Part shown: piece after piece, positions 30,294 through 45,518 of the stretch
Layout: the number at the start of each line of letters is the position of its first letter
Numbering within the stretch: the first letter of the stretch is position 1
Source of the DNA: a virus
Taxonomy: Duplodnaviria; Caudoviricetes
Strand: one strand, 5' to 3'
Virus record (IMG/VR): IMGVR_UViG_3300021514_000002
Span: 192,001 to 256,000 of that record
Length of the DNA stretch: 64,000 nucleotides
Program-made: the position numbers and the translations under genes
The notes under the pieces: generated by a model
Told to the model about the DNA's origin: nothing
What the model saw: the letters and a program-made list of their open reading frames with translations, nothing else
Databases searched by the model: none

Positions 30294-30773
30294 TTATGCC
30301 TGTCTCGTCTTTAATTCCCTTTTTATTACAGTGATTTCTTGCGCTTGCCTGCCAAGTTGTTCTGCAAAAGAAAGTATATCGTCATTTGAGATTACGGGCA
30401 AGACATCTAATGCATCAATAGTATTATAACTAAAAAATTCTTTTATAACTCCAACAACTTTTGGCGTTGAAGTCGTTTTTTTGCTTTTTGTCTTATTGAA
30501 CTTATATCGCTGAGTTTTACCTGACGCGCACAATGTTATAAGATTAACTAACAATTCTTTATGTTTGCCCAAATTAAAAACGAACGGATTAACTAATTCG
30601 TTTAAAAAATAAACCTGACGTGCATCGTCCGTACCAGACATCCATCTCATTAAAATTAATGGACTGATCTCTTTGGCTTGATCTTCGGTAAGCGATTTAT
30701 AAAATTTTCTGTTCTTCCTACTTAGATTAGGAAGAACTTCATTAAACAAATCTAATTTATATTGTTTAACCAT
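30294..30773 (-). CDS. Clamp loader small subunit (gp62-like)
   Basis: PLILMRWMS..LNELVN..RYKF..K..VIKEFFSYN..A..L pattern of gp62-like proteins. Confidence 0.65.
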   Translation of the reverse strand: MVKQYKLDLFNEVLPNLSRKNRKFYKSLTEDQAKEISPLILMRWMSGTDDARQVYFLNELVNPFVFNLGKHKELLVNLITLCASGKTQRYKFNKTKSKKTTSTPKVVGVIKEFFSYNTIDALDVLPVISNDDILSFAEQLGRQAQEITVIKRELKTRQA

Positions 30774-31101
30774 TTGCTGCGTTTATCCGACGGTTACAGA
30801 ATTTGCATTCCACGTAACCATCTTTTTGAACCAAATGCTCATAAGGATGGATACAGTCTTTAACCATTACTTGTCGCAATGCTTGTATTTCATCAAGCAT
30901 TGGTTGTTTTTCATCCTTAATAATATTAAGGATTTTTTCTTCAATCGGTCGAAGCTTTTCAATTAACTTTTCCATATTAGCAAGTTTACGCTTCCACGCA
31001 GTTTTTTCACTACGATCTGCATGGTTCGATATGCTCTCGAATAAATTACGTTCTACCGCCTGTTCTGGTGTTTCATTTTCTGGTTTTTTTCTTCTAGCCA
31101 T
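30766..31101 (-). CDS. Hypothetical protein with C-terminal zinc-binding motif
   Basis: Coiled coil followed by CIHP..CKFC. Confidence 0.65.
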   Translation of the reverse strand: MARRKKPENETPEQAVERNLFESISNHADRSEKTAWKRKLANMEKLIEKLRPIEEKILNIIKDEKQPMLDEIQALRQVMVKDCIHPYEHLVQKDGYVECKFCNRRINAANG

Positions 31102-31298
31102 TATTTTATTAACTCCTCAGAAACGACATCTTTTTCATGACAAACCATATTCAATTTTATATTAATTTCGGTTGGTAACCCAAATAACGTGATTGATGAA
31201 GCTACTGTTTCAAATTCTGTTATTGTTCCTTCAAGATTGTGTTGTTCTAAAAATACAATCAAATCTTCAGGTGTTGTTGGCATTATCATGCTTTTCAT
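31101..31298 (-). CDS. Hypothetical protein
   Basis: Overlaps both neighbours. Confidence 0.55.
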   Translation of the reverse strand: MKSMIMPTTPEDLIVFLEQHNLEGTITEFETVASSITLFGLPTEINIKLNMVCHEKDVVSEELIK

Positions 31299-32602
31299 TT
31301 TACTAACTCCATTGCATCATCAAATTTGTTCACTCTAAGTTCTTTGATGAATTGTTTTCCAATATCAGAATCTTTATCAACTATCATACTTGGTTTAGTT
31401 TCAAGTTGTGCTTTTAGAACCTCATATTGAAGTTTCGTTCTTTCCATGTAAGATTCTGGAACCCTCATGGCATCAGAAACTTTGCGTTGGAAATATTCAA
31501 GATCATCTAACATACCAAGACCTTGACCACATGGTAATGTTTCAACAAGTGAACCCCGCCCTTCTGGATTTGATGAAGAAATGAAATCTTCTGTTATCCA
31601 TTTACCATCACGGACAACTTTTGAGGTCATTTGTGGTATATACGGTGCATAAAAATATCCAGTATCTAATTGTTTCGGTTCTGTTTCAAAATCAAACACG
31701 AGTTGTTTTTCACAATTTTCTTCGTCTATATTAAGCAACTCTACCCCTAATGACTTTATGTGAATTGGTATGTGAATGAATTCTGCGGCATCATTTGGTT
31801 TAATAGTAACATCAACGTGCAATTTATTGTTATCAATACGACTAGGCGTATTATTGGTTTCATCACAAACTACCGAATAGTCAACGATGCTACTGTTTGA
31901 AAGAATATTAGTAATATCACATCTCACCCGCTCGTGGGTTAATGAATCATTTGGTTTGTCTATGTGGACTGCCAGTCCCGCTTGAATGTTTCTTTTAAGA
32001 TCTATAAGCTGTCTGCGTACGTTTACCTTATCGAAAGATGAAGTGTCAGATAGTGCTTCACTTTTTATAGTTGTTAAAGTTAAAATCTCTGCTTTCAATT
32101 CAACAATCTCATCTTTAAGTTTACAAATGGTATCCTTGTCGTCCCTCATGTCGACTAAATCATCATAACTATACCCAAACGCCGTGTTATAATGCGTATG
32201 GTCAAAAGACCCATAAGGTATATTCATTAATGTATTTGTTGTAATATTATTAATTTGCGTTTGCACATCATCTGTGATTTTTGCTGTATGCATTATTGGA
32301 ACGTGAACGTCTTCGATATGTTCGGAAGATGGTTTTGGCATACAACCACGTGATGATACACCGAGACTAATCGGTTTATTGAGCAATTTCATTGCTTCGT
32401 GTATTGTTTCTATATTTACTTCTGGTGCTGGGGTATTAGAATAAGTGCAGGGCGAAGCTGGATAATCAAACATATTTAAAAATGAAAAATTATCATCTAT
32501 AGCCGATACACATGGACTTTTTAGTTTTGGTTTGGTTTCTTTTTTGTTAATCTCTGGTAAGAACTTATCGAACTCGTCTAAGAAATTTTGATTTTTTATC
32601 AT
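31295..32602 (-). CDS. Mosaic protein with tail-sheath, major-capsid and portal-like fragments
   Basis: SSFDKVNVRR..VVCDETNNTPSRIDNN..IKP (gp18 C-terminus), DTGYFYAPYIP (gp23 motif), EDF..GRGSLVETLPCGQGLGMLDDLEYFQRK..MRVPESY (gp20 segment). Confidence 0.75.
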   Translation of the reverse strand: MIKNQNFLDEFDKFLPEINKKETKPKLKSPCVSAIDDNFSFLNMFDYPASPCTYSNTPAPEVNIETIHEAMKLLNKPISLGVSSRGCMPKPSSEHIEDVHVPIMHTAKITDDVQTQINNITTNTLMNIPYGSFDHTHYNTAFGYSYDDLVDMRDDKDTICKLKDEIVELKAEILTLTTIKSEALSDTSSFDKVNVRRQLIDLKRNIQAGLAVHIDKPNDSLTHERVRCDITNILSNSSIVDYSVVCDETNNTPSRIDNNKLHVDVTIKPNDAAEFIHIPIHIKSLGVELLNIDEENCEKQLVFDFETEPKQLDTGYFYAPYIPQMTSKVVRDGKWITEDFISSSNPEGRGSLVETLPCGQGLGMLDDLEYFQRKVSDAMRVPESYMERTKLQYEVLKAQLETKPSMIVDKDSDIGKQFIKELRVNKFDDAMELVK

Positions 32603-32612
32603 TATTGTTCTC

Positions 32613-33545
32613 TTATACTTGTGATAGCCGTATGAACATCGCGGCGGCGTTTATTTCCTGGTCTGCAATGACGGCGTTTTTGTAAAGATGATCGGTAAGT
32701 ATAACAATACCAGCTTCCCAATTATCTTCGTTGCTATATTTTTTTGATTTGTGTAGATTTTCATATAGGAATCTATATAGATCTTCCCATTCTTCTGTTG
32801 CAACATTCGCACACGTGAGTGATCTGGCACCTTTCCAATTATCTGCGCTAATCATATCCAATAACTTAAATTTATAATCACCTGATTCACTTTCCATGAC
32901 AAGGGATTGAAGACTACCATCAATTGAATTCTGTTGTAATAGATTTATAATTTTTCGGATATCGGGATATCCGACTGCAATATACTTGTCTAATAAATCA
33001 ATACCGAATTTTATTTTTTCAGATAACAATATTGTTGCACAATATTCTGCGATCTCATCGCGATCTGAGGCTTTAAATCTAAATTGCTGACTGCGGGATT
33101 TAATTGCTGGCATTATTTTATTTTCATAATTACAAGTAAGTATGAAACGTGCTGGACAATCTGGATCTTCCATGTACTTTCGAAGAACAGCTTGAGCGTT
33201 TTGTGTAAGGTAGTCCGCTTCTTCTAATTGTATAACCTTAAATTCGCCCATTGCGAAAGTGGTTATAAAACTTTTGATTCTATCGCGCATGAAGTCAACA
33301 GAATTATCGTCACTTGCATTAATAAGAAGAACGTCTGTTGGATCAACATCGAGTTCCTTTATTAAGATTTGAGCTATTGTAGTTTTACCACTGCCCTGCA
33401 CGCCAGATAATAGTAAATGTGGAATAGTTTTATTTTCGACCATTTGTTGAAATGCTTTCTTATGGGATTCGTCATGAAAAATATACTCGTTGAGAGTAGC
33501 AGGTCTAAATTTTTCAACCCATAATACGTGTTTATTGGATTTCAT
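32613..33545 (-). CDS. Clamp loader large subunit (gp44/RFC-like AAA+)
   Basis: LWVEKFRP, HLLLSGVQGSGKTT, INASDD, ARFILTCNY..IMPAIKSR. Confidence 0.93.
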   Translation of the reverse strand: MKSNKHVLWVEKFRPATLNEYIFHDESHKKAFQQMVENKTIPHLLLSGVQGSGKTTIAQILIKELDVDPTDVLLINASDDNSVDFMRDRIKSFITTFAMGEFKVIQLEEADYLTQNAQAVLRKYMEDPDCPARFILTCNYENKIMPAIKSRSQQFRFKASDRDEIAEYCATILLSEKIKFGIDLLDKYIAVGYPDIRKIINLLQQNSIDGSLQSLVMESESGDYKFKLLDMISADNWKGARSLTCANVATEEWEDLYRFLYENLHKSKKYSNEDNWEAGIVILTDHLYKNAVIADQEINAAAMFIRLSQV

Positions 33546-33604
33546 TATAATTATTATTCTCCGTATTATGGATGAATAATACTATAATGGGTAACCGTTG
33601 TCAA

Positions 33605-34652: not shown

Positions 34653-34982
34653 TTACACCAAATAATCTTCGTCGATTGCCATCAACTTAGAATCATCTGT
34701 GCCCCAATAAGATATACCATCAACTTCTAACGATTCTGTCCATTGGAGTGCTTCTATTAAAACTCTTGAGCCAACTTTAATATCTGACATTACTTCATTG
34801 CCAATTGATACAACTATTCCCCATCTTGGACCTTTTGCGCTTTCATCATAACTAGACATCTCAAATCCCCAGTCAGTTTTTTCTTCAAATTGTGAACGAC
34901 TTTGGCCGAAATCTGATTTTCTTACAATACTATCTTCAAATTGGAAGATGATACGATTGCGAATAGCTCTTAATGTTGACAT
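34653..34982 (-). CDS. GroES-like co-chaperonin
   Basis: LRAIRNRIIF..RWGIVVSIGNEV..IKVGSRVL pattern of Cpn10. Confidence 0.75.
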   Translation of the reverse strand: MSTLRAIRNRIIFQFEDSIVRKSDFGQSRSQFEEKTDWGFEMSSYDESAKGPRWGIVVSIGNEVMSDIKVGSRVLIEALQWTESLEVDGISYWGTDDSKLMAIDEDYLV

Positions 34983-43528: not shown

Positions 43529-44045
43529 ATTTTTGTGCCCGCATTGCTTCTTCTATTCTCTTGTGATTTTGGAAATACTTTTCTGATGTTAAATCCACTA
43601 TAATTCTAGCATACCTCATGGCACGCGTATTCACACGATCTGCTGTTGTAAAGTAAAAATTAACTGCGGGGATGGCTGTCGGTTTTTTAAAGAATGCAAC
43701 CAGTTTACCTATAATGGACGTAGGGGAAGGGGGTAATGGAAACTCTGCATTAAATGTCAACGTGGATGGGGAATATTGGCAATAAGCGCCACTATCCAGA
43801 ATCCAATGGTGGAACGTATGATAAATGTCACGTACATGGTTTTGATTTTCCCCAATAAAAAGATATTTATTGCCACCGTGGTGTGGTTGTAAATAGGAAA
43901 GCAACGTCACCATTTTTTCTATGGTTTTACCACAACCACGCCCGTATAACTTTTCGTCACGGACAAGCTTAACGCGTGCTGGATCTACTTCGTATAGAGG
44001 TATCATCCTGTAATCGTGTAGCGTAGCACTGTAACGTTGTAACAA
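43521..44045 (-). CDS. Hypothetical protein
   Basis: Contains a YGRGCGKT P-loop-like segment; overlaps neighbours. Confidence 0.55.
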   Translation of the reverse strand: MLQRYSATLHDYRMIPLYEVDPARVKLVRDEKLYGRGCGKTIEKMVTLLSYLQPHHGGNKYLFIGENQNHVRDIYHTFHHWILDSGAYCQYSPSTLTFNAEFPLPPSPTSIIGKLVAFFKKPTAIPAVNFYFTTADRVNTRAMRYARIIVDLTSEKYFQNHKRIEEAMRAQKYE

Positions 44046-44323
44046 TTACGTTGACGATAATATACGTCAAGATGTGTTATTTTTTTGTTAATATCAGATT
44101 GTTTATTATTTCTAGTATCACAAATTATATTCCATTGCTCTATTTTATTTTCATTAACCATATATTCCATGTGGTCATCAAGAATTCCCAATACAACAAT
44201 GCGGTGCGGATCACTATCCCATATGACATTAAAATCTACAATCAACACTTCAATAAAACTGGATATGTTATTACATAATTGTTTGCTATTGACATGTTGT
44301 GTTTTTAAAATAAAATCGGTCAT
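44003..44323 (-). CDS. Small protein resembling the tail-sheath C-terminal domain (paralog A)
   Basis: IEQWNIICDTRNN..LDVYYRQRNCYNVTVLRYTI. Confidence 0.55.
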   Translation of the reverse strand: MTDFILKTQHVNSKQLCNNISSFIEVLIVDFNVIWDSDPHRIVVLGILDDHMEYMVNENKIEQWNIICDTRNNKQSDINKKITHLDVYYRQRNCYNVTVLRYTITG

Positions 44324-44328
44324 TGCAA

Positions 44329-44649
44329 TTACTTCTGTATAGTATAAGATAAGTGCGTTGTATTAAAACAATTTTTATGTTTATAGTAAATGTCAATAAT
44401 GAATTTATTTTTTTTAAGTTCTGAAAATTTATTATTTCTCGAATCGGCAACTACATTTAATTGTTCAAGTTTATTACTTTCCGCTTCGTCTTCCAACATC
44501 ATTTCAATTAAATTAATCGCAGAGTTCATATCTATCGATAAATCAAATAACATTACCACCGCACGCATATGTTCATCAATGCTTTCAAAAATTGATTTAC
44601 TATGTACGTTTTTAGTTGTTGATGTAATTTTCACGTTATAAGGTTCCAT
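44329..44649 (-). CDS. Small protein resembling the tail-sheath C-terminal domain (paralog B)
   Basis: LEQLNVVADSRNN..IDIYYKHKNCFNTTHLSYTI; TATAAATA at 44664. Confidence 0.55.
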   Translation of the reverse strand: MEPYNVKITSTTKNVHSKSIFESIDEHMRAVVMLFDLSIDMNSAINLIEMMLEDEAESNKLEQLNVVADSRNNKFSELKKNKFIIDIYYKHKNCFNTTHLSYTIQK

Positions 44650-44666
44650 TAAAAATATACCTATAT

Positions 44667-45518
44667 TTATACACTAAATGCATACTTAATTGCAGGGTGG
44701 TGTTCATACCCCTCAAGTTCAAAATCTTCTAATGTTACCCATGTTTCCAAGTCTTCAAGACTTTTAATATCTGGATTAATTTTCAGAGTCGGCAATGCCA
44801 GTGGTTCTCTATTAAGTTGAACTTCTGTTAATAATTCAAGTTGGTCTTCGTAAATGTGAGCATTTACAATTTTATGAAATGCCTTTGCAGGTTTAAGTCC
44901 TGTAATCTGTGCCATAATAATAAGCAACCATGCGACTTGCACTTGGTTGAAACCGTGTCCTAACGGAATATCATCACTACGCTGATAACTGGTAAGATAT
45001 AAGTTACCGTCTAAGATACTAAAAGTGTGCGTATGCATACAAGCTGCAAGACATGCCCTGTTTATTTCGGCAGGATTCCAAAATGTCAAAATTTCACGCC
45101 GATCATCATAGCCTTTACTTAGGTTATTTACAATCTTTTTAAGTTGGTCAAATGGCTTGCCGCGGCGATCCATAAACCTACGGCCTTGGGCACCATAGCA
45201 GTCGCCCATGTCATCTTCGCCCTTTCGGTAAGGATTATTAAGCCATGCTTCATTGTCGTTAGCGTTAGCGTTCCATGTATTACAACCAAGAGCGCGAAAT
45301 TGTGCTGCGTTGGTATACCCACGCAGATAACCTAACATTTCTGCGATTGCTGGTTTCCAAAATAATTTTTTGGTTGTTAAAACAGGTAATTTTCCTTCAC
45401 TAACATCGTAAGTGAAGTTTGCATCAATGACAGTTAAACAACGCTTGCCCGTGCGTTTATTTGTTACCCATTGACCTTCATTTATTATTCTATTGCATAG
45501 GTTAAGATATTCTTTCAT
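44667..45518 (-). CDS. thyA: Thymidylate synthase
   Basis: [48 protein letters not shown]. Confidence 0.96.

Follow-up and report, generated by a model that had tools for sequence, protein, structure and literature searches.

Viral decoys include the poxvirus protein K3L, which mimics eIF2alpha, and the phage protein Ocr, which mimics DNA, while satellites encode capsid-redirecting proteins (P4 Sid, SaPI CpmB and PLE TcaP) that engage the assembly interfaces of their helpers. T4-like phages also possess 'hyperplastic regions', in which the accessory genes are mostly without recognisable homology. On the host side, bacterial receptors of the STAND/Avs type detect most of the core virion proteome, portal and capsid included, in monomeric form and by way of conserved oligomerisation surfaces (PMC13581612). 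The assembly surfaces that are sensed cannot easily mutate, which limits the escape of phages from virion sensing. Here we describe a gene of a giant marine T4-like phage whose product, judging by its sequence, joins pieces of the portal, tail sheath, capsid and probably head protease in one chain. The gene lies within a window of 64,000 nucleotides (nt), bases 192001-256000 of the 363,531 bp virus record IMGVR_UViG_3300021514_000002. No described phage protein or family made of fragments of its own virion proteins turned up in our literature searches, and the architecture is therefore rated as a new kind of thing. The mosaic open reading frame (ORF), P0001, and its parts are given below in window coordinates, with structural assignments from AlphaFold2 (AF2) and its predicted local distance difference test score (pLDDT).

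31295..32602, minus strand: mosaic ORF P0001, 435 amino acids (aa), isoelectric point (pI) 4.95
32555..32590, minus strand: N-terminal helix motif NFLDEFDKFLPE (MLDELEKMLK in relatives), AF2 helix 5-13
32345..32395, minus strand: motif NKPISLGVSSRG (residues 70-86), with a match to the Ser-loop in the gp21-like prohead protease of this phage
32051..32146, minus strand: coiled-coil helix, residues 153-184 (AF2 with 20 sequences, pLDDT 88-95)
31736..32047, minus strand: complete tail-sheath C-terminal ('handshake') domain, residues 186-289 (Pfam PF17482)
31613..31720, minus strand: gp23/gp24 capsid fragment with DTGYFYAPYIP, residues 295-330 (blastp and Pfam)
31322..31597, minus strand: portal (gp20) fragment, residues 336-427 (Pfam PF07230; own gp20 332-415)
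31298..31324, minus strand: C-terminal tail peptide KFDDAMELVK (motif scan), common to 8 other ORFs of the genome

An earlier note, made from the letters of the sequence, had described a single protein of sheath, capsid and portal pieces outside a morphogenesis block. This description holds, and the ORF, its coordinates and the three segments are as claimed, the nucleotide ranges corresponding to residues 187-280, 313-325 and 337-386. Within their parent proteins, the copied pieces are the most conserved parts and those that self-associate. A complete T4-type virion gene set is found elsewhere in the record by Pfam and by blastp against the phage's own ORFs, and includes the following genes.

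C1:303769-305469: own portal gp20, full-length (Pfam match C1:303994-305280, E 2.7e-92)
C1:306331-306975: own gp21-like protease
C1:308140-309648: own gp23
C1:318067-319920: own sheath gp18, 618 aa
C1:323019-324308, minus strand: gp24-like capsid paralogue

The sheath piece spans the whole domain of the Pfam family Phage_sheath_1C (PF17482), with residues 186-282 aligned to profile positions 2-103 of 104 at an E value of 1.6e-9, above the Pfam cut-off. PHROGs assign the mosaic protein to tail sheath at 2e-22, and blastp matches the piece to the last 106 residues of the phage's own gp18 at 41% identity (E 9e-21). A profile of the mosaic family aligns to positions 538-653 of the 659 residues of T4 gp18 (E 1e-18). 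The C-terminal domain of gp18 is required for sheath polymerisation. AF2 models the sheath domain with a pLDDT of 75-92, and Foldseek matches it to sheaths at probability 1.00 and to T4 gp25 ('sheath polymerization initiator') with a root-mean-square deviation of 2.6-5.6 Å and a template modelling score (TM-score) by target of 0.42-0.44. PF04984 and PF22671 were not found in P0001, while true sheaths carry both in the same search; the main sheath domains (PF04984, gp18 domains I-III) and the N-terminal arm needed to propagate the polymer are missing from the mosaic protein. A sheath inner-layer domain standing without the rest of the sheath protein is also the design of T4 gp25 and the TssE-type initiators. 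However, gp25 is part of the baseplate structure and its gene belongs to the morphogenesis block, whereas the mosaic domain is nearer in sequence to gp18, is fused to portal, capsid and protease pieces, lies in a replication operon and is optional among relatives.

The portal piece matches Portal_T4 (PF07230) over residues 336-390, which correspond to profile positions 254-308 of 433 (E 6.4e-12, above the Pfam cut-off), and PHROGs assign portal at 3e-11. In blastp against the own gp20 it shows 43% identity over 97 aa (E 4e-16), with a 51-aa core of approximately 65% identity, and the alignment to gp20 332-415 reaches almost to the C-terminus of the mosaic ORF. Residues 336-388 align to positions 330-382 of T4 gp20. 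With the domain limits of gp20 taken from PMC4493910, the piece contains the clip domain's end (inner clip loop), the channel loop and the stem helix alpha7; the tunnel loop is replaced, and residues 405-427 resemble the start of helix alpha8. The clip tip N291-K296 of gp20 contacts the terminase (PMC4493910), so the alignment to positions 330-382 leaves the channel-lining core present and the terminase-contacting tip missing. Around 100 portal residues are represented, short of the full, dodecamer-forming portal fold of wing, stem, clip and crown with its ~430 profile positions. A complex prediction of residues 325-435 with residues 26-520 of the own portal scored 0.02, which is counted neither for nor against any reading.

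The capsid piece is short and weak in any single test. The Gp23 family of Pfam aligns residues 309-332 to profile positions 310-332 of 376 at E 0.011, below the cut-off, and PHROGs give major head at 0.09. Profile searches, which the earlier note had proposed for the segments, thus recognise the portal and sheath pieces above the cut-off and the capsid piece below it. In blastp 15 of the 36 residues are identical to residues 422-457 of the own gp23 (E 0.003), with 13 of 18 identical around the DTGYFYAPYIP motif, and the own gp24-like protein is matched at E 0.002. The same profile positions are matched in two homologues, and gp23 and gp24 are the best matches of the family profile outside the sheath and portal proteins. 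The matched segment of the own gp23 aligns to positions 431-484 of T4 gp23, which hold the AGIYYAPY motif. The complete HK97-fold core (~376 profile positions) is absent from P0001.

The earlier note had called the N-terminal half unrelated. This stands in so far as no Pfam family matches residues 1-185, where PHROGs give one weak unnamed match (E 0.046) and neither database gives a protease match even at E values up to 5; it does not stand for the motif LGVSSRG, which matches the prohead protease, nor for the coiled coil, which is confidently modelled. LGVSSRG is invariant in the six closest homologues (alignment A1), and its exact 7-mer is found in the genome in the mosaic ORF and the gp21-like protease ORF only. 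A profile of 26 motif positions from eight members returns the own gp21 as the best non-self match among 3415 ORFs (E 0.0012), with a match length of 11 residues. The motif aligns with GVASRG of T4 gp21 (PDB 5JBL), and is a probable catalytic-serine loop; judging by the offset of the tag in the 5JBL chain, the matched serine is probably the nucleophile (T4 Ser140). The His-Ser-Glu triad of gp21 (Peptidase S77) in its ~210-aa fold is not found in the mosaic protein. The coiled coil carries a KLKxEIxELK motif conserved in the homologue alignment. The N-terminal helix motif is matched as a regular expression in 12 of 21 members, and its region is occupied in 16 of the 20 sequences of the family alignment A2.

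The AF2 model built with the 20-sequence alignment has a mean pLDDT of 63; a run with 6 sequences (pLDDT 46) was set aside in its favour. The model consists of an N-terminal helix, the coiled coil, the sheath domain, a disordered capsid piece, and a portal hairpin with three helices. The sheath domain alone is matched by Foldseek, to sheaths and T4 gp25. No look-alike scoring above 0.9 was found in the ESM Atlas, where the structural matches are sheaths only.

Misassembly of the ORF is ruled out by a hydrothermal-vent run from another study, which has 100%-identical pieces along the gene. Diverged relatives with indels in marine runs also speak against it, as does the recurrence of the architecture in many separate, independent assemblies of related phages, a recurrence that the earlier note had proposed to look for. 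The runs with DNA identical or related to window positions 31000-33000 are hydrothermal-vent and marine metagenomes from four studies, and no RNA run holding this region or its close relatives was found. Recent copying from the phage's own gp18, gp23 and gp20 is likewise ruled out: the identities are 41-65%, and the sheath modules represent an old lineage outside the clade of the own gp18. In the tree of sheath modules, eight members form one group (support 92/76), which is sister to a clade of ~125 marine T4-like sheaths including the own gp18. By this placement, the capture of the sheath domain was old and single. Two stand-alone sheath-C-domain proteins, P0041 (139 aa) and P0066 (142 aa), group with the mosaic-type modules in the same tree; P0041 begins, by eye, with a twin-arginine-like signal peptide, and P0066 carries an FDRAME tail motif that stops seven residues short of its C-terminus.

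A first search returned five clear homologues of the mosaic protein with 32-67% identity and the same sheath-plus-portal layout. An exhaustive profile search added ~15 members and viral contigs two further ones. Around 20 metagenomic relatives, down to 25% identity, have intact reading frames, so the ORF is not decaying in relatives, though single modules are lost in some. The family ranges from portal-only to five-module forms. In the minimal members, of 137-150 aa, the portal piece is accompanied only by the N-terminal helix and the tail; P0050 and P0057 have the sheath domain without the portal piece, and P0158 has the capsid motif without it. In P0002, the closest relative with 67% identity, the whole sheath domain is missing and the capsid motif is degenerate. 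Some relatives add a beta-rich 'B' module that is absent in P0001, and no parent for it was matched in the genome, Pfam or PHROGs. The short motifs GVSSRG, RGSxVETL, LEYF and FDDxME are invariant across the six closest homologues. A 233-aa protein on a 718-kb metagenomic contig, P0144, combines a sheath C domain with a different Gp23 piece. Its gene overlaps a DNA polymerase B gene at the end of the latter, and it represents the same design principle at another replication locus. P0032 (258 aa) has a portal fragment followed by ~190 residues of sheath C-terminus that nest inside true sheaths in the tree, and is either an independent recent fusion or an artefact of assembly or gene calling.

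Eight members were located on their contigs (L011, L012, L013, L014, L017, L035, L036 and L037), and in all eight the mosaic gene directly follows gp44 and precedes a conserved 111-aa gene. The corresponding features of the window are as follows.

33576..33604, minus strand: sigma70-type promoter-like site upstream of gp44, TTGACA-17-TATTAT, 11/12 (consensus scan only)
32613..33545, minus strand: gp44-type clamp-loader gene (PHROG clamp loader, E 6e-72)
31101-31298, minus strand: 65-aa ORF between the mosaic gene and the 111-aa gene
30766..31101, minus strand: conserved Cys-rich protein of 111 aa, forming the right flank of the variable island, 77-93% identity across phages

The gp44 gene ends 10 nt upstream of the mosaic ORF, which bears out the statement of the earlier note that the gene sits among replication genes for the upstream side; downstream, three small genes are followed by the start of the tail-collar and fibre block. 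The place behind gp44 is a hot spot of indels and holds 0-2 extra small ORFs. L013 lacks the 65-aa ORF, as does a marine relative whose contigs skip 31109-31304; in L011 ORFs of 77 and 68 aa take its place. Pairwise rates of nonsynonymous (dN) and synonymous (dS) substitution, another proposal of the earlier note, were obtained for the P0001 genome against its closest relative, L013.

Mosaic gene: aa identity 65%, dN 0.24, dN/dS 0.40
gp44 end: 98%, dN 0.01, dN/dS 0.02
111-aa gene: 93%, dN 0.03, dN/dS 0.06
159-aa gene: 96%, dN 0.02, dN/dS 0.15
228-aa gene: 93%, dN 0.04, dN/dS 0.08
Collar (receptor-side) protein: 68%, dN 0.23, dN/dS 0.17

The dN/dS of the mosaic gene thus stands against 0.02-0.17 for the five flanking genes, among which the collar protein alone shows comparable divergence. 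Besides the substitutions, the mosaic gene differs from its L013 counterpart by a module of 112 codons. Across five phages the gp44, 111-aa and 159-aa genes are 67-96% identical and free of large indels; the mosaic gene, by contrast, shows 25-66% identity and varies in length from 317 to 530 aa. In alignment A2 the mean pairwise identity is 0.60 for the C-terminal tail, 0.47 for the N-terminus and 0.44 for the portal piece, versus 0.26-0.31 for the linkers. Because the modules are better conserved than the linkers, the mosaic gene is under selection and yet by far the most plastic element of a conserved operon. Gain and loss of modules between close relatives agrees better with an accessory function that is adjusted to circumstances than with an essential one. 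The 'hyperplastic regions' of T4-like phages are similar in being variable islands flanked by conserved core genes; their products are small and acidic, and their turnover is fast. Their genes differ from the mosaic gene, which is recognisably built from core virion genes.

The same plasticity could come from weakly selected scrap, if a recombination-prone spot after gp44 gathered pieces of late genes that are translated and have little or no function. The coming and going of modules and small ORFs at this indel hot spot, the dN/dS value and the degenerate capsid motif of P0002 would agree with such an origin. But the frames are intact in ~20 members down to 25% identity, the short motifs do not vary among the six closest homologues, the sheath modules belong to one old maintained lineage, and the second locus type, that of P0144, has the same design. 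We consider an accumulation of scrap very unlikely.

The C-terminal tail is the most conserved module of the family and lies inside the final helix of the AF2 model (413-434). A strict form of its motif, [FY][DE]xAM[EKG][LVI], occurs 7 times in the genome, always at the extreme C-terminus of an ORF, where ~0.2 matches anywhere are expected by chance (an estimate); an eighth variant follows in tandem. The carriers besides the mosaic ORF are the following.

C1:295879-296241, plus strand: tail carrier
C1:296223-296570, plus strand: tail carrier
C1:296552-296866, plus strand: tail carrier
C1:83542-83961, minus strand: tail carrier
C1:65415-65720, minus strand: tail carrier
C1:65702-65914, minus strand: tail carrier
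C1:147458-147715, minus strand: tail carrier
C1:323019-324308, minus strand: tail carrier (the gp24-like paralogue)

Their tails read ..AFDRAMEIV, ..AFERAMEII, ..KFDDAMNIV, ..YEDAMKVIGD, ..FNRAMEILK, ..AFDDAMEILK, ..YDYAMGIL and ..AFESAMKILD. Among the seven small carriers, six are acidic proteins (pI 4.0-5.3) encoded in early or DNA-metabolism regions, and three of the small carriers lie in tandem between an SbcC-like and a RuvC-like gene. The gp24-like capsid paralogue bears the tail on a clade-specific extension of ~70 residues, which isolated phages do not have. In L011 a small gene adjoining the mosaic gene also bears the motif. Diverged tails are seen in P0050 (..YENAMKVIE) and in the L017 member (..AYNKAMGILE), and P0032 ends without the peptide. 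The shared tail is probably a docking peptide, and points to a new peptide of this kind common to proteins of giant marine T4-like phages.

The phage's family-B DNA polymerase (C1:259945-262584, plus strand) ends in ..SLLTDSLLDF, which we take to resemble a T4-type clamp-binding tail; no gp45-type clamp is matched in the genome by Pfam (PF02916, PF09116). A role of the shared tail in binding the sliding clamp was rejected, as the polymerase tail differs from KFDDAMELVK and Pfam finds no gp45.

If the tail docks all carriers on one putative hub (the prohead interior, a scaffold, a chaperone or a protease), the mosaic protein might be an adaptor or a cargo whose virion pieces are targeting modules. 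Such a protein might enter the head by packaging and be delivered together with the DNA, or it might bring the hub to virion proteins as they are made. The HK97 protease and encapsulin cargo have capsid-targeting peptides at their C-termini, and the motif, enriched at extreme C-termini in this genome, is carried by the gp24-like paralogue and six acidic small proteins and, in L011, by a neighbour of the mosaic gene. T4-type internal proteins, which are packaged in the head, have a capsid-targeting sequence with an L/I-x-E site cleaved by gp21. P0001 has L-D-E and L-P-E within its first 17 residues, which are like the L-x-E cleavage sites of T4 gp21, although tripeptides of that sort are common. 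Most of the tail-bearing genes, however, are found in early or DNA-metabolism regions, away from the head module; it is not obvious where a sheath domain would fit inside a head; and the differing polymerase tail excludes the sliding clamp as the hub. Taken together, an adaptor or cargo role seems distinctly unlikely.

The nature of the virion pieces bears on a further alternative, that the protein interferes with assembly or regulates it. Its fragments would dock on portal, sheath and capsid subunits as a pseudo-neighbour, capping or delaying polymerisation, either of the phage's own subunits (avoiding premature polysheath and aberrant rings) or of those of co-infecting T4-like competitors or resident tailocins. 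The pieces are self-association elements of their parent proteins, and the only confidently folded domain matches sheaths and T4 gp25, a handshake domain that does not polymerise. Since the rest of the sheath protein is missing, the sheath module could accept the strands of a neighbour and not propagate the polymer. Fast evolution would suit a phage-against-phage conflict. An essential chaperone role is unlikely because all relatives have sheath, portal and capsid, yet many are without the matching module, and a poison directed at family-wide conserved interfaces would also harm the phage's own assembly. The satellite proteins Sid, CpmB and TcaP are comparable in engaging assembly interfaces, but they are satellite-encoded, have a single target each and contain no stitched fragments, whereas the mosaic gene is encoded by the phage and holds pieces of up to four virion proteins. 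We regard interference with assembly as unlikely, while giving it more weight than an adaptor or cargo role.

The earlier note had suggested a multi-epitope decoy, an assembly modulator or a superinfection-exclusion factor. The reading we favour, and this tentatively, is that the mosaic protein is an early-expressed interface mimic that may act as a decoy for the pattern-recognition immunity of the host. The N-terminal helix, the coiled coil and the shared C-terminal docking peptide would form a scaffold, on which the clip/channel/stem segment of the portal, the handshake domain of the sheath, the capsid strand and the Ser-loop of the protease would be displayed as segments of oligomerisation interfaces. 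The gene is probably transcribed together with the clamp loader, before virion proteins accumulate. Its product could then serve as competitive bait occupying host factors, most plausibly Avs/STAND-type sensors, and specifically those that recognise newly made monomeric virion proteins via the same surfaces. As only fragments are presented, we propose that such sensors would be held but not switched on. The interfaces bound by sensors include the capsomer interface of the capsid A-domain and the ring interface of the tail tube (PMC13581612). Hypervariability, module turnover, the promoter and the published Avs work lean towards a conflict-related accessory role and away from housekeeping assembly. 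The position 10 nt behind gp44, the Acb1 anti-CBASS gene of L011 and the second mosaic, P0144, at a polymerase gene are further points in favour of the proposed mimic. A wider form of the proposal, that the protein is a polyvalent competitive antagonist of receptors sensing the core virion proteome, with modules swapped as host sensor repertoires change and the tail marking a larger early counter-defence set, is more doubtful still.

Several observations weigh against the proposed decoy. The sheath is listed only as a possible sensor target (PMC13581612), and no sheath sensor is known. Avs sensors bury thousands of square angstroms of a folded target (PMC13581612), and the 11-aa protease piece and the 18-36-aa capsid piece, modelled as disordered, are far too short to mimic such large buried surfaces. 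The early timing derives from a consensus promoter match only. As the sheath module does not track the own gp18, mimicry could extend only to residues conserved family-wide. The shared tail, which is also present on the gp24-like paralogue, has no role in a simple decoy model. Finally, a dN/dS of 0.40 and many indels are also expected from relaxed constraint.

The proposed logic of the decoy would be like that of K3L and Ocr, in that a fast-evolving early protein resembles what a sensor recognises; those proteins mimic a host substrate or nucleic acid, whereas the mosaic protein resembles the phage's own virion proteins. Of the phage anti-Avs proteins catalogued in EVADES, the two that are treated in detail resemble enzymes, one a ligase and the other a nucleotide-binding protein (10.1101/2025.06.06.658234). 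If the decoy reading is true, it would provide a simple general escape route from virion sensing, along with a natural catalogue of the peptide segments that matter to sensors. If it is wrong, the family is still a plain example from nature of short pieces of unrelated structural proteins being joined, time and again, into a protein kept under selection. The small size and modularity of the protein, with relatives that differ by whole modules, make module-by-module tests straightforward.

Further observations concern the surroundings of the gene and of its relatives. Between 30018 and 35464 the minus strand has no T4-type late-promoter octamer TATAAATA. A 109-aa ORF (window 34653-34982, minus strand), two genes upstream of gp44, has, by eye, the look of a GroES/gp31-type co-chaperonin. 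In L014 (840-2879, plus strand) gp44 has 679 aa instead of 310 and contains an intein-like insert directly behind its P-loop GSGK; next comes one of the minimal mosaic-family genes, which encodes 137 aa with the portal piece as its only virion module. In L011 an Acb1 anti-CBASS gene is located in the same block as the mosaic gene. Elsewhere in the window, two tandem 106-aa ORFs (44003-44323 and 44329-44649, minus strand), which Pfam does not recognise, match the sheath-C part of the mosaic family profile at E 6e-6 and 2e-3. They lie directly downstream of a perfect TATAAATA octamer at 44664-44671 on the minus strand.

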